DNA of 64,000 bases from Octopus vulgaris (lineage: Eukaryota): contig OX597814.1 of the NCBI GenBank assembly GCA_951406725.2, forward strand, positions 61,132,001 through 61,196,000, in the 5' to 3' direction. The notes beneath the pieces were generated by a model. It saw only the letters and a list, made by a program, of their open reading frames with translations. It ran no database searches and was not told the origin of the DNA. Below, piece by piece: positions 1,386 to 62,718 of the stretch (position 1 is the stretch's first letter; every line of letters begins with the position of its first letter). The translations under genes were made by a program, and so were the position numbers.

Positions 1386-2859
1386 ACTTTTTTTTATAAT
1401 TATTGACTGCTGTATCATTACATTCACCTTAATGGAAAACAAAATTTTCTAGTTTCTTTCAGCATCAGAAATTAGTTCTTCATCAAAGTGTATAGAAAAT
1501 ACATTCTTTACAATATTTACCCCTTTGATACAATATAACCAACTTCATTTTTGGACAGATTCACAAATCTACAAAAAGTATAAAATGAATTCCTAAATTA
1601 GTTTCAAGCATCAAGGTTTAATCATATTTTCTCCATCTTGCTCACATATGAAGCTCACATGGTCCTGAATTCCTTATTAGTTCCATGATTTTCAAAAATT
1701 CAAAGTTCTGTGGTATTCATTGCCTAAATACCAGATCTTCATTTTTTTTTTGGGTTGGTTTTTCTCTTCTTTTTGGTCATCGTTTCTACAATTTTCTCTT
1801 AGAATTGTTGCCAAGATTAGCAAAGATGAAAAATTTTCATCATTAAAATTAGGATCAAGAGTATCTATTCTGTTTGCTGATGGTACTAAGACATTTTGCG
1901 ATATTTGTAATCATTCTGCTTGCAACAGAATGATTCAAAAAGTTTATTAAATTTTTGGACATACATGGTTGTGTGGATGTTTTTTATTTTTTATTTTTTT
2001 TAATTTAGTAGAGGATGTAAAAATTTGCTGTCTCATTGATTTCTCTCCATTCAACTTTTCTTCTCTAGAAAGACTGTATTAAAAACATTGGATTTTCCAC
2101 TCCTCACTGGAAGTTCAATATGCTCTTGTTATCAATTTTAGTCTAATATTTATGCATAAATATGTATTATATATGCACATACACATACACACACATACAT
2201 ACACAGATACATGTGCTCACACCACACACACATACACACATACACACACACACACACACACACATACACTTGATGCTAAAATATACTCCCTATCACAAAT
2301 CTGAAAAAAAAGCTAGTTTTCCCACTAAACATTTTGGCTAAATTAAAAAAAAATTAATCAAACATTGAAAATGTCAAATTAGCTACACAGTATAGAAAAA
2401 GTTGTGTCATAACTGAATTCTTTAAATGCCTCTTGTATGAATGAATGAATAGAAATCTGGTTAAAATTAGAACCAACTTTGTTGGCTAATTTCGTAACAT
2501 CTGCAACATTTTTTCCCCAAAAGTTCTTCTACTGTTATTTGTTTTTTATTATTTTTATTTGTTTTTAGCTTTGATTTTACTCATTCCCTTCACATTATTC
2601 TACACCATGAATGCCTTTTGAGAGAGTAGCAAAATCATGCAGACAATATCTTTGTTTCACCTCTGTTGCTTGTGTTACTTTGACCAATTAGAATTTATAG
2701 GTCATAAACTTGTAGCTGTGTTATAGTTAATATGTTGAATAATTAATAAAAGAAAGAACTATCTTCAATAATGTTTATTAATAACACTAAACATTTTTTA
2801 TATACATAATGTAGAATTTTACAATTTTTCTTTCTGTATCTGTAGCTATTGTTATTTTC

Positions 2860-3172
2860 CTCTCAAACACTGAAGTTCTCAGAGGAGCTCTGCTGTGCAG
2901 CCTGTGGGAGATTGTGGCAGAAAATAGAGTGAGACTTGCAGATCATGTTTTCTGACTTCCAGAAGAACAAATACCTAATGGGTACCACCAATGGGTATCC
3001 CCAATGGATGAAGAGAGAGAAACCCAAAAAGATATAACATGCCACCATCAAAGAAGATCTGAAGCAACATCACTTCACCTAGGAAAATGCTGGTGACAAT
3101 GCTTAGAATTGGGATCATTGGAAACAGCTTACTACCCGATATACAAGCCAACTCTATGGGAAGAACTAAGAC
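2860..3172 (+). pseudogene. Decayed RTE-like LINE 3' end
   Basis: RVRLADHVF*LP resembles the RTE C-terminal R.R..GHV.R motif; stops and frameshifts. Confidence 0.45.
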
Positions 3173-3352
3173 AAATGTGGAATTTGTTATATACAGGTTA
3201 TGTGTGGAAATCAGAAAATAATGAAATTGCCTAACGATTAGAACTAATATATTTAATATAATTTAGAACATAATTGCTGGCTACAGCAGGAATAATATCT
3301 TAGACACACAGTTAAGACACGAAAATTATCTTATTAAACATGGGTAAAAAAG

Positions 3353-3497
3353 ACACTGGTACTTATTTTATTGACCCTGAAAGGATAAAAGGCAAAGTTG
3401 ACCTTAGCAGAATTTGAACTCAGAATGTAAAGATGGATGAAATGCTGCTAAGCATTTTACCTAGTGTGTTAATGATTCTACCAGCATGCCATCTTAG
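3353..3497 (-). mobile_element. SINE family B fragment (gcctttcatcctttcggggtcgataaa core, Meta-domain-like)
   Basis: Homologous to 35550-35982. Confidence 0.7.
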
Positions 3498-3894
3498 CTT
3501 GCTGAAATATTCTGAAAATGTTTCCTGAGACCTTTTCGAGTAAAAATTAAACTTCTTTTTTTTAATCTATCACTAGCTATCATAAACTTTCATCAAAATG
3601 ATTGACTGGAAAAATGGCAGTAGGAATTGTAATAGAGTTTGAGGATATAGCCAAAAAATGACTCTGGTTAGTATTACAAAGTATAGTATTATTATATACC
3701 AGCAGCAATTATCTCCAGTCAATATTACCTAACATAGCAATATTATTCACTCACAGTTTTGACGTTCAACTTAAACATTCCAGGTTCAAAATCAAAGAAG
3801 GTTATCTCCTATAAAGCTAATGATCTGTAATTTTTTTTCCTTTGCATGTAAAACACAAAGCACGTGATCATGTTGTTTAGGCCAATTGGAAACT

Positions 3895-4075
3895 CAGTCT
3901 GTAGTACCTGTATTTCAAAGGGCCGACTTGCCACACTCTGTGTCTCACCAAGTCTCCCTGAGAACTATGTCTGTGGAGTGCTCAGCCACTTGCACATTAA
4001 TTTCACAAGTAGATTGTTCCATTGATCAGATCAACAAAAACCCTCATCATAACCAATGGAATGCCAGTTAAGCAA
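3895..4075 (+). mobile_element. SINE family C 3' fragment
   Basis: Shares gtctgtggagtgctcagccacttgcacattaatttcacaag with 4288-4540; degenerate copies near 10490-10660 and 35400-35495. Confidence 0.6.
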
Positions 4076-4287
4076 CACAAACTTTATGCTTGCTTGGGTC
4101 ATTCACTTCACATTTGACCAGCCTCCTTTTCTCACACAGCAGCTACAGATAACCTGTCTTATTCTCTCTCTCTCTCTTTCTGGCTAGATGTCAGCCTTTT
4201 TTTAGCTTTAAAAAATATCTTCTGAAAAACATGTTAATTTTCTTTTCTTTCACTTTAGGGCTATTACTTGATCACATACCTTACTTT

Positions 4288-4540
4288 GTGAAAGGATGTG
4301 GCCTAATGGTTAGAGTATTTGGCAGTGTGTTGTGTATTTGAGCAACATGCTTTATTTCATGTTGCTCCAGTCTGGCAAAAATGAGTAGTACTAGTATTTC
4401 AAAAAAGGGCAGCTTTGTCACATTCTGTGTCAGGCTGCATCTCTCTGAGAACTACATGTCTGTGGAGTGCTCAGCCACTTGCACATTAATTTCACAAGCA
4501 AGCTGTTCCATTGATCAGATCAACTGAAACCCTTGTCACA
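4288..4540 (+). mobile_element. SINE family C
   Basis: tRNA-like head tggcctaatggttaga; body shared with 3895-4075; head region resembles 45689-46020. Confidence 0.6.
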
Positions 4541-4616
4541 ACTACTAGTTTTTATATCTTGCTCTCCAACACAGGTTCTTCCACTAACACAAATTATTTA
4601 CGAACATTTTTTCATA

Positions 4617-4749
4617 ATGGCTATGTGGTTAAGAAGCTCACTTTGCAACCACATGGTTCCAGGTTCAATCCTATTGCATAAGCAGCCCCAAGCCAACCAA
4701 TGCTTTGTGAGTGAATTTGGTTGGTGGAGTCTATGTGGAAGCCCATCAT
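4617..4749 (+). mobile_element. SINE family A 5' part
   Basis: tggctatgtggttaagaagc...ggttcaatcc head. Confidence 0.7.
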
Positions 4750-4931
4750 ATGCATACATATATGCACATGCACGCATGCACACACATGCACACACACACA
4801 CACACCTATAAATTTCATGTGTTTTAACACACCCTGTGCTTTGAGGGAGTCATCCACACTGCACTAAACTGTAGTATACAAGCAAACAAGCAAAACACAT
4901 ATACTGAATATGTACAATCAATAATATATAC

Positions 4932-5163
4932 ACACCATCCGAGCGTGGCCGTTCGCCAGCCTCGTCTGGCACCTGTGTCGGTGGCACATAAAATCACCCA
5001 CTACACTCTTGGAGTGGTTGGCGTTAGGAAGGGCATCCAGCTGTAGAAACACTGCCAGATCTGACTGACCTGGTGCAGCCTTCGGGCTCCCGAGACCCCA
5101 GTTGAACCGTCCAATCCATGCTAGCATGGAAAGCGGACGTTAAATGATGATGATGATGATGAT
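4932..5163 (+). mobile_element. RTE LINE 3' UTR with (GAT)n tail
   Basis: Closely matches 28900-29128; ends ggacgttaaatgatgatg. Confidence 0.8.
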
Positions 5164-5196
5164 ATGTATGTATGTATGTATGTATGTATGTGTATG

Positions 5197-5405
5197 TGTC
5201 TTTGTGTTTGTCTTCCCATACCACTTGACAACCAGTGTTGGTTTGTTTATGTTCTTGTAACCTAGTACTTTGGTAAAAGAGGCTGATAGAATATGTACTT
5301 GACTTTACAAACTAAGCACTAGTGTTGACATGTTTGACTAAACCCTCAAAGCTGATGCTCCAGCATGGCTGCAATCCAATGACTGAAACAAATAAAAAGA
5401 TAAAA
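5197..5405 (+). mobile_element. SINE family A 3' half
   Basis: Reverse-complement homolog of 310-515. Confidence 0.65.
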
Positions 5406-5456
5406 TATAAACTAATTGTCACATCAACATACTGTTTATTTTCTCAAATATATCAA

Positions 5457-5895
5457 GGCATGCGGGCATGGCAGTGTGGTAAGACTTTTGCTTCCCAACC
5501 AAATGGTTTCAGAATCAGTCCCACTGTGTGGCAACTTGGGAAAGTGTCTTCTATTATAGACCTGGGTTAACCAAAGCCTTGTGTGTGGATTTGGTAGACA
5601 GAAACACAAAGAATCCCAGTGTGTATGTGAGTGAGTGCATGCATATTTGTATCTCCTTCTCTTGACATTATGTGATAGTTGTAAATGAGTGTCACTGTCA
5701 TACAAGTGGTGTTGTTCATTTCAAATATTCTGCGAGGACATGTCTGGCCATGGGGAAATATTACCTTGCTTTGAAACAAGTAAGGGTTGGCAATAGGAAG
5801 AACATCTGGTTGTAGAAAACAAGCCTCAAATAAACCATCCAACTTATACAATCAAAGAAAAGTGAATGTTAAAACAATGATGATAATGATGATTA
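5457..5895 (+). mobile_element. SINE family A head with RTE-like 3' tail
   Basis: tRNA head, then ...ggcaataggaagaacatc...gttaaaacaatgatgat; same layout at 49826-50272 and 34500-34905. Confidence 0.7.
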
Positions 5896-6673: not shown

Positions 6674-6695
6674 TGTATGTATGTATGTACACATA

Positions 6696-7159
6696 CATAT
6701 GGATATATATGTTTGTATGCGTATGTGGCAGTATGTATATGTATGTGGACATGTGTGTATATATGTATGCCTGAATAGATATATGTATGTGTGTGTGTGT
6801 GTATGTGTGGACGCGGAACATTCATTTTAATGAGTTGTATCTATCATCCAATGTGATACATCTGCACCACCAGATGCCCCTGAACCAGTTATTGAGTGTC
6901 CCACCCAAGAGGAATCAATGCTATATGTGTTGAAACAATTGATTCCTCTTGGGTGGGACACTCAATAACTGGTTCAGGGGCATCTGGTGGTGCAGATGTA
7001 TCACATTGGATGATAGATACAACTCATTAAAATGAATGTTCCGCGTCCACACATACACACACACACACACATATATCTATTCAGGCATACATATATACAC
7101 ACATGTCCACATACATATACATACTGCCACATACGCATACAAACATATATATCCATATG
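6696..7159. repeat. Near-perfect inverted repeat (224/222-bp arms, 18-nt spacer)
   Basis: 6696-6919 is the reverse complement of 6938-7159 apart from one 2-bp microsatellite indel. Confidence 0.95.
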
Positions 7160-7584
7160 GATAGATAGATAGACCGCTATAGAGAAAAACATACACAGTC
7201 ATACAGCAAGACAGATTTGTGATGGTGTTTGTCTATCTATTTATATCTGTGTGTGTGTATACATACGAGTTTGTTAGCATTAAATTTGTTAAATCTGCAC
7301 ATTCAAGCAGAACAGCAAATAAGTAAGACAAATATTTAATTCAAAGTTCAGGAGTTTTGGTAACAAAGACAGAAACAGAACTTTGCTGGGTTTTGAAAAG
7401 ACAAGAGAAATATTTTCATCAACATAGAGTAATAAAACCAAGCATTTCAAAACAGTATTTAAATGTGTCAATAAGGAAAACTGTGGTATAATTTTAATTA
7501 TGTCTGTATTTTGCACTGGGTAAAGTGTTACTATACATTTTTATGTGTGTGGGATACTTGTTCAGTGTTGATATTTAGTAAAGC

Positions 7585-11559: not shown

Positions 11560-12690
11560 TTGCCTAGGAAGTTCTTTTCATCATTCATTCTCACCAGATG
11601 GCCATCTCACCTAAAATGACTTTGCAGAATTGTCAATTCTGCACTCCTGCTACCACTTCTCTCAAGCACCTCCACATCACCGATCACCTCCACATAAACA
11701 GTGACATAGACCACTTCTACCTAAGATGAAAACAAGGTGGAAGAGGCTTAACATTAATCCAAAATGCATTTTAATGTAGCATCATATCCCTTCGGCAACA
11801 TCTTTTAACCACCAAGTGTCAAAGTGCATCTCTTGACCAAATTTGCATTCATAAGGCTGATAACATCATAAGGCTTAGTAGGCAGCTCCTTGAGCAACAT
11901 TCTTTGTCTGATAACTTAAAATACATGCCCAAATAAGTCACACGTCTCTACTGCTATGTATCATCAGATGAAAGGATGAGCCTATATGAGCAGAAGACTA
12001 TGCATGAATATGTTAGTAGAAAGCTCCGTGATGATAGTAACATCAAAGCAGTTTATCATGGATGAATAGCCAGATTACTACCTCCTACTTTGAAGGCTAC
12101 GCATTTGCAATCCAGGAACAGGAAATATCAACCAAGTACCTGATGCGGGAAAAGCCGTAAAATATGACAACCGATACAGACTTTATGGAGTTCACTTTAA
12201 AGATATCACCCACATCATAAGCATTTGTCCGAAAATGTCAACACGGTATTATCTACCGATGAGTCATGACGTAGCTAGGACACTCTATAATGAAATCCGT
12301 CGGAAGGATAATCCCGAGGACAAAGAAATAAGAAGCAACAATATAGTAGAAGCTATAGTCACTCATAATAATAAGGAATACTGGTGGAATGTTCCAGTGA
12401 AGACCTCAATAAAATGTAAGCACAACAGACCTGATATAATGATTTGGTATAGAGAAGAGAAACTGTGCACAGTTGTGGAAATGAGCTGCCCAGTGGAAAT
12501 TAACATAAAGCTGAAGATCAGTGAAAAAGAGAATACCTATACTGAACTATTGCAAAATCTACAGTTACTCTATCCAGTTATAAGTTCAGGTAATTATTGG
12601 GGCCCTGGGATATGTAACATACTAACTAAATATCAATCTTGAGAAATTAGGCTTCCCAAAACCAGAAAGAAGAAAGTTAATTCAGAGATA
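11560..12690 (+). pseudogene. Decayed R4/Dong-clade non-LTR retrotransposon (RT C-terminus and restriction-like endonuclease)
   Basis: LYLR*KQGGRGL, EGYAFAIQEQEISTKY, DITHIISICP and ORF 12235-12642 with HNRPDIMIW...VVEMSCP...EKENTY. Confidence 0.8.
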
Positions 12691-29380: not shown

Positions 29381-30066
29381 CAATTTACAACCAAAAGGCA
29401 ACAAATATAGTTGTCACTAAAGTGATGGAGGGTACTAGTGACCACTGGCATTGCTACAAATAAGCGTCAAAACAACTCTTAGCCACATGAGAGCACTTTT
29501 CTAATGACTGACAAGAGAGACAAGCTCCCTATGGCAAGCAAGATGAAGTCGTATCAACACTGATTTCAGATTTAATTAACCTTCATCGGTGAACCATTAC
29601 TCCATCACTGAGGGCTAAAAATCTTAACTCATTTTATCCATCTCATACATGGTGAAGTGAGAATTATAAATTATTAAGGTGGTTATTTACAATTTACAAC
29701 AGAAAGGCAACAAGTATAGTCATCACTAATGCGATGGAGGGTGCTAGTCAGCACAGCCACCTTGATAATTTATAATTCACACTTTACCATTTCCGGAATC
29801 AGTCAATGTTTCCTTGGGATTCTCTATAAGACTGACAAGGCAAGTTAATTTCTTTAACCCTCAGCAATGGAGTAACGGGTTACTAATGAAGGGTAATTAA
29901 ATCTGAGATGACCAATGATATGACTTTATCTCATTTGCCGTAGGGAGCTTGTCTCTCTTGTCAGTCATTAGAAAAGTGCTCTCATGTGGCTAAGAGTTGT
30001 TTTGACTCTTATTTCTAGCAATACAGGTGCTGACCAGCACCACCCATCACTTTAGTGATGACTATA
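29381..30066. repeat. Nested inverted/direct repeat of the 45224-45595 family
   Basis: About 29406-29630 inverted against 29845-30066; inner IR 29650-29685 and 29757-29790; direct repeat at 29381 and 29690. Confidence 0.85.
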
Positions 30067-30082
30067 TGTGTATGTGTGTGTT

Positions 30083-36893: not shown

Positions 36894-37234
36894 TAATAAA
36901 GTAAACATACACTCATACATACATACATACATACATACATACATACATACACACACACACATACATACATACACACACACATACATACATACATATACAT
37001 ACATACATACATATACATACATACATACACACACACACATACACACACACACAGTATTGAAGCTTGAGAACAATCAGATACATTTGCAACACATCTGTTG
37101 AAAATATTATTGTTCACACACATACATATACATATATACATACAGACAGACAGACAGATAGACACACACACACACACACATGATCCAGCATGGCCACAAC
37201 CTCAAGGCTGAAACATATAAAAGAATAACAGAAT

Positions 37235-37600
37235 ATAAATGTGTGCAAAGTACAAGAAATATTAATGCAGTATATGGGGATTGGACAATAAGCGTAAGGC
37301 AGTGTCAATGGTGGTTCCAGAAATCCCGAGCCATAAACTACAGCCTAGAAGACGAGCCTCATCCTGAAAGATCTGTAGAACTCGACAAGGACATCCTGAA
37401 AACCCTGGTGGAACAAAATATCATCGTAACTGTTGAGGAACTAGCAGAGAAGCTTGGATTTGGTCATTCAACCATTCATTGACACCTGTGTGCTATCGGA
37501 AAAGTCAGCAAATTGGGTCAATGGGTTCCTCACGAACTTTCCGAGTCTAATTGCATGCAGAGAGTGAATGTATGCTTTTCTTTGCTGTCATATCTCACCA
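37235..37600 (+). pseudogene. Mariner transposase N-terminal fragment
   Basis: HTH region ISVRQCQWWF...LEDEPH...TVEELAEKLG, a stop codon, then KLGQWVPHEL (mariner WVPHEL motif). Confidence 0.9.
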
Positions 37601-45688: not shown

Positions 45689-46020
45689 GTGAAGGCACAT
45701 GGCTCAGTGGTTAGAATGTGGGGTTTACAATCATGAGCTAGTGAGTTTGATTCTTGGACCGGGATGTGTGTTGTGTTCTTGAGCAAGACGCTTTATTTCA
45801 TGTTGTTCCAGTTCACTCAGCTGTAGAAATGAGTTGCAACATCACTGGTGCCAAGACTTTCCCTTGGATAACAATGGTGATCTGGAGAGGGAAGGCTGGT
45901 ATGTATGGGTGACTGCTGGTCTTCCATAACAACCTTGACCAAACTTGCACTTTGGAAGGTAACTTTATAAGTGCAATCCCATGGTTGTTTATGACCAAAG
46001 GGGGTCTTTACACTTTACCC
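45689..46020 (+). mobile_element. tRNA-derived SINE
   Basis: A box tggctcagtggttaga; degenerate B box gagtttgattc. Confidence 0.7.
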
Positions 46021-46032
46021 TATAGAATTCAT

Positions 46033-46915
46033 GGATCTTTACCTTTTGACCTACAGATTTAAAAAATAATTTTTTGTAACTAAACACTTTCAAACTTTGG
46101 ACACTGGTAGAATGTGTCATATAAAACATATTTTACTCTTTGCATTTTTGAGAAAAAACTTATATTTATGAAGATATTTCACCTTAAAGTTCTCATATTT
46201 TGGTAATTTCAACCAATCAATGACGTGCATTCAGCTGAATAAAATTACTGCTGTTGTTTGTCAGCAACAACTATTGGCTGTGTATTTTTCACTTCTTACT
46301 GTTTTTTATGACATTGTTTGTGCATTTGTACTGGTTTTAAGGTTTTAGGCTTAGAGTTTTAGGGTCAGGGTTAGGGATTTAGGGTTAGGGTTAGGGTTTT
46401 AGGGTTAGGGTTAGGGTTAGGGTTTGAGGGTTAGGAATTTAGGGTTAGGGTTAGGGCTTTAGGGTTTAAGGGTTAGGGATTTAGGGTTAGGGTTAGGGTT
46501 TTAGGGCTAGGTTTTAGGGTTAGGGTTTTATGGTTAGGGTTAGGGTTAGGGTTTTAGGGTTAGGTTTTAGGGTTAGGGTTTTAGGTTTAGGGTTAGGGTT
46601 AAGGTTTTAGGGTTAGGATTTTAAGGTTAGGGTTATCATAAATAACAGTGACAAATGAAATATACACCGCCAGAAGTTCTTGTTGACAAACAACAGCAGT
46701 AACTTTATTCAGCTGAATACACATCATTGATTGGTTGAAATTACCAAAATATGAGAACTTTAAGGTGAAATATCTTCGTAAATATAAGTTTATCTAAAAA
46801 ATGCTAAGAGTAAAACATGTTTTAATATGACACATTCTACCAGTGTCCGAAGTTTGAAAGTGTTTAGTTACAAAAAATTATTTTTTTAAATCTGTTGGTT
46901 AAAAGGTAAAGATCC
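46033..46915. mobile_element. Merlin-type fold-back MITE with telomeric core
   Basis: GGATCTTT...AAAGATCC termini, arms of about 280 bp, perfect 8-bp TSD gaattcat (46025-46032, 46916-46923). Confidence 0.9.
46335..46635 (+). repeat. Interstitial (TTAGGG)n array with TTTTAGGG variants
   Basis: Seen directly. Confidence 0.95.
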
Positions 46916-47354
46916 GAATTCATCTGTCTGCTAAAAATAGTAGCCAAATCAATCTCAAGTCACAAATTACTGTTTGAGAAAAACACAAGAAAAGAACCTC
47001 ATTAACTAATCCAATCCTAGGTGCACTGCACCTAAAATAAATATGCAATAGTCACTTGTGAAGCTGACATGGGGCTAACAACAACAACAACAACAGTAAC
47101 AGCAACAAATTCTTTTCTCACTTTTTTTTTGCCTCAGTGCCATACAATATACAAAGAACATCACAAATTAGATGTTAGAAATATTTATTTGCTATTGTAA
47201 GTCAACTCATTTCTATTGTGATTTATTCCTTCTTTGTTGGCAATTCTGTTAAAAGTTCAATTCCCCCGTCTAACACATAATTTGTTCAACGTTGATAAGC
47301 AAACACCTCATTTGAGAATTCAACTATACAGCATGATTTATATGTGTGTGTGTG

Positions 47355-53529: not shown

Positions 53530-53939
<410 letters not shown>

Positions 53940-60321: not shown

Positions 60322-60474
60322 ATCTAAGTCATATTTTATCAATCATGTTCAGTTCCTGTTTAATATCTGCTCTCATCACCCACAATGATTCTTTCTGGGC
60401 CATTATGGACCCTTCTGTTTAATTGAACTTTCTGGACCCTTCTGTTTAATTGAACTTGTTCTCATCATTAAATG

Positions 60475-60992
60475 GGATCTCACAGATTTTTAAATTATTT
60501 TTTTTTAACTAAACAGTTTGAAACTTTGTATACTGGTGTAATGTCTCACACTGAACACAGTTTACTTTCAACATTTTTGACAAAATTTCATATTTTCAAA
60601 GTTATTTCATGTTAAATTTGTCATATTTGGGTAATTTTAACCAATCAATGATGAGTATTCAGCTGAAGAAACCTACTGCTGTTTGCAATAGTAATCGAAG
60701 AACAACAACTTCCAGGTCATCTCTACTAGATCTATTTTTCAACCATGTAGGACCCAGAAGTTGTTGCTCTTCAATTACTATCACAAACATAAGTAGATTT
60801 CTTCAGCTGTATACACGTCACTGATTGGCTAAAATCACCTAATACGAAATAACTTCTAAAATATTAAATTTTGTCAAAAATGTTGAAAGTAAACTGTGTT
60901 CAGTGTGAGAAATTACAAATGTATATGAAGTTTCAAACTGTCCAGTTAAAAAAAATAAATTAAAAAATCTTTGAGCCAAACTGAAGAGATCC
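60475..60992. mobile_element. Merlin-type fold-back MITE without telomeric core
   Basis: GGATCT...AGATCC termini; perfect 8-bp TSD attaaatg; arms related to 46033-46915. Confidence 0.85.
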
Positions 60993-61002
60993 ATTAAATG
61001 CT

Positions 61003-61267: not shown

Positions 61268-62426
61268 TTAGTTAGTTAGTTAGTTAATTTTTTGGCTCAA
61301 AAAGCAAAAAGCAAGGCCATGTAGGGGGACATGGAGTTATGTACAGGGTGGTGTTCATGTAAAGAGTTCAGGCCACTTGAGGTCAAGGGAGATTTTGAAC
61401 CGAGCGGTCGTCAGCATCTTCACCATCTCATCTGGCAGCTTATTCCACGGATCCACAACCCGGACAGAGAAAGCCCCTCTCCTTCGATTGAGATGAAATC
61501 GTTGCAGATAGAGCTTTTCAGAATGACCCCGCAGCCGACGCTCTGAAGCAGGAGTGAAGAACAGCTCTTTCGAGAGGTTACACTTTTCGCTTATGATGTT
61601 GTGAGCAAGAATGAGATCTCCACGACGGCGGCGTTTTTCTAGAGAATAAAGGGCGAGCGTCTTCAGCCTTTCTTCATAAGACAAATTCTTGAGACCAAGA
61701 AGCATGCGGGTAGCCAGCTTCTGGACTCTTTCGAGATGCTGTACGTCTTTGAGGAGATAAGGAGAAGAGGCTTGAATCCTGTACTCCAATATGGGTCTCA
61801 CCAGCATGACATAGAGCGGTAGGAATATGGCTGCTGTGAGCATTCCGAATGACCGTCGAATCAAGAACAGAATTCCGCGTGCTTTGTTGGCAGCATGGAC
61901 GCACTGGGCCGAAGGCGAAAAGGAGGAATCCACCAAGATACCCAGGTCCTTTACCTGATCGGTCCTCTCCAGCAGCAGACGACCAGGCTCGAAATCAAGT
62001 TGAGTTGCAGGAGGAGAGCCAACAGGCAGATGACAGCACTTTGACAGGTTCAGACACAGGTCCCAATCGTTAGACCATCTCCAAATTTGGTGGAGGCATC
62101 GACGAAGATCCTCTATATCACTGAGAGGAGCGACCAGTTTGACATCGTCGGCAAATAGAAGGGTGTGTTGCGTGAGGTCGTTGGGCAAGTCATTTATGAA
62201 GACTAAGAACAATAAGGGCCCAAGCACTGAACCTTGAGGCACACCACTGCTCACACTGGAGACGTTGGACCACGAACCATTAACTTGGACTTGGAAGGAG
62301 CGATCTGAGAGGAAGGCACCAACCGATCGTACAATATCCGGATGGAAACTATATGCTTGAAGCTTGACAAGTAATAGGCGGTGGTTTACCGAGTCAAAAG
62401 CTTTGGCAAAGTCCAGGAAGCAAGCT
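61268..62426 (-). mobile_element. 5'-truncated CR1/L2-group LINE with (TAAC)n tail
   Basis: RT ORF, short 3' UTR and taactaac tail. Confidence 0.9.
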
Positions 62427-62431
62427 ACCAC
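61355..62431 (-). CDS. Non-LTR reverse transcriptase C-terminal half (5'-truncated; the listed start is a junction GTG)
   Basis: FLDFAKAFDSVNH, GVPQGSVLGPLLF, LFADDVKL, KDLGI, VRPILEY and WNKLP motifs; 358 codons without a stop. Confidence 0.9.
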   Translation of the reverse strand: MVACFLDFAKAFDSVNHRLLLVKLQAYSFHPDIVRSVGAFLSDRSFQVQVNGSWSNVSSVSSGVPQGSVLGPLLFLVFINDLPNDLTQHTLLFADDVKLVAPLSDIEDLRRCLHQIWRWSNDWDLCLNLSKCCHLPVGSPPATQLDFEPGRLLLERTDQVKDLGILVDSSFSPSAQCVHAANKARGILFLIRRSFGMLTAAIFLPLYVMLVRPILEYRIQASSPYLLKDVQHLERVQKLATRMLLGLKNLSYEERLKTLALYSLEKRRRRGDLILAHNIISEKCNLSKELFFTPASERRLRGHSEKLYLQRFHLNRRRGAFSVRVVDPWNKLPDEMVKMLTTARFKISLDLKWPELFT

Positions 62432-62718
62432 ACCTACATAGAAGAACAGATAAAAATGTTATTAGAACAAAAGGTTATTTATTAGATCAAGTTTGAGAGT
62501 TTGATTGAAATGACAGTCTAAGGAAATCAACATCAATGTCAACAGATTTCTTTTTATGGCATTTGAATGTGTTTTCAATGTTGAAACGAAGTTGGGCAAC
62601 AATTTCAAGGTTCACCTGCCACTCAGCAGCTTTTTTCTTGATGAACTGCAAATAAATGGATGGCATATGATGAATTGGTTTAGAAAATTTACAAAGGAAG
62701 ATATGTATAAGAGTATGT

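Follow-up and report, generated by a model that had tools for sequence, protein, structure and literature searches.

A likely Merlin-type MITE with a degenerate telomere-like array in Octopus vulgaris

The element and its neighbours in the window

The window, that is the whole 64,000-nucleotide stretch of Octopus vulgaris DNA analysed here, contains an 883-bp element that reads GGATC inward from both ends (Table 1). Its left and right arms are 91.5% alike over a 281-bp alignment. It is bounded by exact 8-bp TSD copies of GAATTCAT, as the sequence-only reading had claimed with a span that includes both copies, and such an 8-mer match is expected by chance at 3.4e-5 given the composition. Its terminal symmetry of 28/30 bases (0.93) ranks highest among the 125 TSD-bounded candidates that a scan of the whole window gave. 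No ORF of at least 100 aa lies inside the element, and its predicted fold is a long hairpin of -241 kcal/mol. Short, non-coding and provided with TIRs and a TSD, it has the make-up of a MITE.

Table 1. Coordinates of the element, its relative and other features in the window
Feature	Position	Strand	Evidence
Left TSD, GAATTCAT	46025-46032		Identical to 46916-46923
Left TIR, starts GGATC	46033-46311	+	281-bp alignment with right arm, 91.5%
25-bp non-repeat linker, left side only, family feature	46312-46336	+	Arm alignment; loose-end match in run X9
Degenerate telomere-like array	46337-46635	+	TTAGGG and TTTTAGGG-type octamers, G-rich on + only
Right TIR, ends GATCC, inner end adjoins array	46636-46915	-	Arm alignment; 2,717-5,854 contigs per run on the stretch containing it
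Right TSD	46916-46923		Flank contig match of organism C begins here, probable empty site
Sister-subfamily element, 518 bp, GGATC ends, short spacer, without array	60475-60992 (60467-61000 with TSDs)		Arm and TSD comparison; TSDs at 60467-60474 and 60993-61000
Near-perfect palindrome	6684-7171		139-nt arms, 99% complementary, 18-nt spacer, further 124-nt arms
182-aa frame	12094-12642	+	No Pfam match
Long-armed palindromic element	29401-30071		247-nt arms, 81% complementary, 177 nt apart; no TSD in window-wide scan
Mariner-type transposase remnant	37162-37482	+	Mos1 HTH PF17906, E 4e-7
Left flank of the element	45700-46024		One 47-bp match elsewhere in the window
(TA) array	53530-53936		~205 units
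LINE fragment	61355-62458	-	367-aa frame, reverse transcriptase PF00078, E 3.9e-21

The interior is dominated by a single array, with periods of 6, 14, 20 and 53 by Tandem Repeats Finder and 41.5 copies at the period of 6. TTAGGG occurs 30 times in these 299 bp versus 12 occurrences of TTAGGG or CCCTAA in the remaining 63,701 bp on both strands. The array is one-stranded, as the opposite strand carries no TTAGGG hexamers. Perfect hexamers cover 60% of it, their longest uninterrupted run is 4, and they are mixed with TTTTAGGG-type octamers at spacings of 13–14, 20–22, 26 and 40 bp. A single telomerase template would write a uniform tract, so the mixture suggests growth by slippage of a composite unit. 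The loop is asymmetric as well, with the linker between the left arm and the array and the right arm starting directly from the array. Thus, the earlier description of about 300 bp of repeat between arms of about 280 bp is right in both lengths, but the array is off-centre and degenerate and not a clean telomere tract.

The array carries 18 YTAGGGTTR sites, which we take to be TRF half-sites, versus 19 in the whole window, and 16 copies of TTAGGGTTAG versus 16 window-wide. It also contains three four-G-tract motifs and has a G4Hunter mean of 1.12. The sequence-only reading raised the ideas that the element could recruit telomere proteins or seed healing by telomerase; both are possible in that they are compatible with these motifs.

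A relative, the other GGATC-ended element of the window, has its own exact TSD, ATTAAATG. Its own arms are ~78% alike, and its outer 203 bp share 79% identity with the array-bearing element. Past ~220 bp the inner arms of the two cease aligning, so the relative represents a sister subfamily and is uninformative on gain versus loss of the array. It was rejected as a pre-array ancestor or an 'empty' version of the array element, since the inner arms are not homologous. Of its earlier description, the similar outer arms and the missing array hold, but the subfamily is a different one with differing inner arms. The relative lacks 13 bp after the first six bases of its left end and 15 bp inside its right arm, while its TSD is intact. 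A LINE fragment lies ~360 bp from it.

The window is rich in microsatellites and SINEs. The left flank of the array-bearing element, presumably a tRNA-derived SINE by resemblance, has the MITE at or near its end. The near-perfect palindrome sits between microsatellites and is either a foldback element or an assembly artefact. The 182-aa frame resembles, in our assumption, an R2/R4-type LINE at its restriction-like endonuclease end. A Pfam scan covering 9 of the 49 window ORFs returned the mariner HTH and the reverse transcriptase, one each.

Assignment to a superfamily

Mutator-type and foldback MITEs commonly have long AT-rich arms, and hAT elements, too, have 8-bp TSDs. The hAT ends are usually CAG or TAG, and the Mutator TSDs are mostly 9 bp. 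Measured against these features, the termini and the TSD found here fit Mutator/foldback or hAT less well. Merlin elements are defined by TIRs of 24–462 bp, GG ends and 8- or 9-bp TSDs (PMC8101967; after Feschotte 2004). Both window elements have exact 8-bp TSDs, all four of their ends read GGATC, a second terminus variant of the family described below ends in GATCC, and the 281-bp TIR length lies in the Merlin range. The GG termini, the 8-bp TSD and the TIR length are shared with the non-autonomous Merlin elements of the Repbase-based S1 Table of PMC8101967. Moreover, Merlin is abundant in an octopus, with 191 transposase protein hits reported for Octopus bimaculoides (PMC8101967).

The element differs from the described Merlin elements in having no transposase in it, and part 1 of 2 of the S1 Table contains no cephalopod family. 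No IS1016/IS1595-like DDE transposase domain was found in the 9 of 49 window ORFs scanned with Pfam. A metagenome scan with a 17-base terminal pattern returned at least 119 loci, and blastn of both elements against the 119 gave one 38-bp match, so these loci appear to be chance matches. A degenerate arm pattern had 0 matches in viral contigs.

Hence the Merlin label of the sequence-only reading gains support from the GG ends, the TSD and the TIR length, though no transposase partner was found. Judged by its sequence, the element likely works like, and is, a Merlin MITE. The same behaviour under another long-TIR superfamily, Mutator/foldback-type or hAT, has the missing transposase link in its favour and the two sets of TSDs and GG ends against it; it is unlikely and would change the label only.

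Copies and arrays in public sequencing runs

The right arm with its flank, or a part of it, is present in 20 of the 24 listed runs, from 9 studies with five organism labels. Four of the 24 were aligned to 46600-47200, namely the contig runs X19, X2 and X9, the last from organism C, and the raw-read run X22. Small shares in other organism C runs were not counted as evidence. The three contig runs have 4,163 (X19), 5,854 (X2) and 2,717 (X9) contig records on this stretch. X19 and the source of the window may be closely related. X19 and X2 are not independent because 6 of 12 joint rows are common to them.

Among the loose ends listed, 106 contigs of X19 and 118 of X2 exit at 46915 into long flanks with a median of 255 letters and an agreement of only 0.39. 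Such unlike flanks mean many different insertion sites, and dispersed copies with different flanks are what a MITE family has. Another 52 (X19), 62 (X2) and 26 (X9) of the listed loose ends belong to the second terminus variant with the same GATCC end. Summed contig depth is not copy number; the terminal depth, divided by the single-copy depth and again by 31 to allow for overlap between contigs, sets an approximate minimum of 120–170 arms. The terminus variant of the window element is nearly absent in X9, where its depth is 251 versus 44,570 and 292,128 in the other two contig runs. In X22, 0 of 12.9 million reads fall on the high-copy arm despite the species label of the best holder; either this label includes a different organism, perhaps, or the reads may have been filtered out.

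At the window locus, an X19 contig (record 8) spans the right outer junction over 46870-47069 with 1 difference in 200 bases. The flank contig of X9 (record 24), with 7% divergence, matches from exactly 46916 onward, and its preceding 66 letters do not fit the arm. Organism C thus probably has an empty site here, as far as this one sequence match indicates. The missing right flank in X2 was rejected as proof of locus absence, as the records are filtered and 6 of its 12 joints are common with X19. Dating by arm divergence alone was rejected too, since both arms hold the minority letter at 9 of the 15 sites that deviate from the family majority.

The array is not private to the window copy. The bin 46600-46620 within it stands at 143, 453 and 409 times the single-copy depth in X19, X2 and X9, respectively. 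The window array has just 9 repeated 31-mers among 342 distinct ones, so the locus alone would yield few contigs at about single depth. Some contigs, 34 in X19, 36 in X2 and 19 in X9, run beyond a stretch end, and they continue into the array because the depth is zero at the right stretch end. The array contigs are not plain telomere, which was considered and rejected: the depth at 46619 without the two extra letters of the octamer is only 9% (X19), 2% (X2) and 4% (X9), and hence the octamer is retained in more than 90% of the depth. Array words absent from the window copy also occur, and among the variants listed one is found in a single X2 contig at a depth of 1,788 versus ~55 for single copy. 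Contigs matching human telomere DNA were filtered out, so all these array counts are lowered.

Joints of array and arm are seen directly outside the locus. They connect 46603 with 46675 on opposite strands (X19 and X2), 46604 with 46647 (X19) and 46617 with 46704 (X19), whereas at the window locus the positions to which the left side aligns are 46600 and 46636. An X2 contig (record 9) is from another copy, 87% alike, and includes the last 9 array bases. The direct evidence of array–arm connection thus consists of three joint rows, at single-copy depth, and the 9 array bases in this contig. From the inner arm end, 20 contigs of X9 continue into sequence that, compared by eye, agrees with the reverse complement of the left linker in 23 of 30 letters. 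Organism C, although its flank contig starts at the TSD, possesses both array contigs and this linker. For the right arm–array link, X9 has no contig depth listed at 46635. No contig of the whole element occurs in X19, X2 or X9, and no second complete arm–array–arm copy was seen in them.

Together, the high array depth, the retained octamer spacing, the foreign variants and the array–arm joints in contigs impossible from this locus mean that the element most likely carries the array along when it moves. This agrees with the proposal made from the sequence that a DNA transposon spreads interstitial telomere-like sequence, which transposition likely does here, and with its expectations that the array recurs in other copies and that sequencing records support the junctions, as the contig across the right outer junction does.

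Origin of the array and comparison with known systems

Our favoured explanation, which we hold to be probable, is that the element belongs to an abundant non-autonomous cut-and-paste MITE family, likely Merlin, whose founder likely already held a degenerate array, and that this array has since been mobilised in trans as passive cargo. The array is probably a passenger without function. We infer that an autonomous partner supplies a transposase, which binds at the GGATC ends and creates the 8-bp duplication at insertion. The asymmetric order of arm, linker, array and arm would have arisen from a longer element through internal deletion. Slippage or unequal exchange involving the hexamer-plus-octamer unit would have enlarged and varied the array, with no fresh telomerase synthesis per copy, and its seed repeat may have come from a telomerase patch in the founder or from local slippage. 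The array would predate the split from organism C, and the insertion at the window locus would postdate that split.

The array could instead be selected cargo that binds host TRF or forms G-quadruplexes and aids end pairing, protection, insertion or escape from silencing, so that Merlin elements acquire it repeatedly. This is rather improbable. The TRF-type sites and G-tracts concentrated in the array fit it, as does a TRF gene in molluscs with putative telomere binding (PMC8653790), but TRF binding in invertebrates is itself putative. Two leads come from PMC8101967. Merlin-1_Aplcal, an autonomous molluscan Merlin of Aplysia californica, contains 39.5 copies of a period-6 repeat in 245 bp, close to the count at the same period here, although the source does not state its unit and the resemblance could be accidental. 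In one supplement of that paper, 36 of 36 two-unit TTAGGG matches fall in the Merlin contig file of Ptychodera flava, near Merlin transposase matches and in one shared context, but the run is just 2–3 units and its position relative to the TIRs is not visible. Telomere-like runs in Symbiodinium and plant contigs of the same supplement were not taken as support, as their link to elements is not visible.

Selected cargo is further opposed by the sister subfamily, which has transposed with its own TSD and is now without the array, and by the degenerate array itself, which varies between copies. Moreover, the Merlin elements of Repbase have many unrelated tandem-repeat periods, so that the telomeric repeat may be one case of many. 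We regard as rather doubtful also the wider proposition that Merlin elements of animals with TTAGGG telomeres repeatedly carry such arrays since TRF or G-quadruplexes aid their movement. They would then be where most short interstitial telomeric sequences (ITSs) of molluscs such as cephalopods come from, by a route independent of fusion and repair, and may seed breakage or telomerase healing.

It is quite improbable that only a minority of the copies have the array, with most of the array-like contigs being subtelomeric variant repeats or other satellites and the family a minor carrier. The depth in X2 drops steeply from 581,129 at 46656 in the arm to 64,972 at 46624 in the array, the direct joints are few, X9 has no listed junction depth and the relative in the window is array-free. 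However, the arm depth is inflated by left arms, which cannot cover 46624, and 46624 still retains 32% (X19) and 42% (X2) of the depth found at 46635. The filter against human-telomere-like contigs lowers the array side, and the joints and the shared linker connect the array to the arms.

Addition of the array to this copy after insertion, by telomerase-type break repair at the hairpin tip as the sequence-only reading had also allowed, is largely refuted on the sequences compared and highly improbable: in vertebrates, such insertions are known from break sites, including some within repeats (PMC8537989), and the long predicted hairpin and the array-free relative agree with it, but other copies have array variants and array–arm joints, array contigs are abundant in organism C, which probably lacks this insertion, the regular octamers and the 14-, 20- and 53-bp periods would be unlike a single-template product, and the array is one-stranded and off-centre, not head-to-head.

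A DNA transposon bearing telomere repeats is not new as such. The telomere-bearing elements of ciliates, TBE1 and Tel-1, are DNA transposons with telomere repeats at the tips of their TIRs. In the octopus element, the repeats are instead internal and on one strand, not at the tips.

Tandem repeats as cargo are known as well. Several Merlin families hold internal tandem repeats, and Merlin may spread them (PMC8101967). The word stem 'telomer' is absent from the main text of that paper, so the telomere-type cargo is not described there. The insect GTCY MITEs and the Xenopus Xstir (PMC6947457) likewise have a tandem repeat hitchhiking in an inverted-repeat element, but theirs is not a telomere motif. 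In the full-text papers searched, which include few subscription papers, we found no published account of this family, nor one of any Merlin element whose core is of telomere type; the family may be deposited in Repbase or Dfam. What is known is thus tandem repeats within Merlin and MITEs with microsatellites, and what is likely new is the telomere-like cargo in a Merlin-type MITE.

TTAGGG is the telomere motif of Amphioctopus (PMC13218726). Internal tracts of it are usually taken for relics of fused chromosomes or repaired breaks (PMC6410037), likewise in a slug genome (PMC12506671), and the abundance of ITSs is called a mystery in a review (PMC9071541). The short ITSs at double-strand breaks (PMC8537989, PMC6410037) resemble the present array as internal TTAGGG tracts of similar size. 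They differ in being single-locus repair insertions, absent from related empty copies, whereas the present tract has a mixed unit and lies inside a multicopy TSD-bounded element. Transposition of mobile elements has been named as one possible ITS route (PMC6410037).

A concrete high-copy DNA transposon with a telomere-like tract makes this a testable third route beside fusion and repair. If the array were functional, the family would be a transposon co-opting telomere proteins. The internal TTAGGG signals met in FISH or in scaffolding by telomere motifs may, in such genomes, be transposon copies and not fusion relics.
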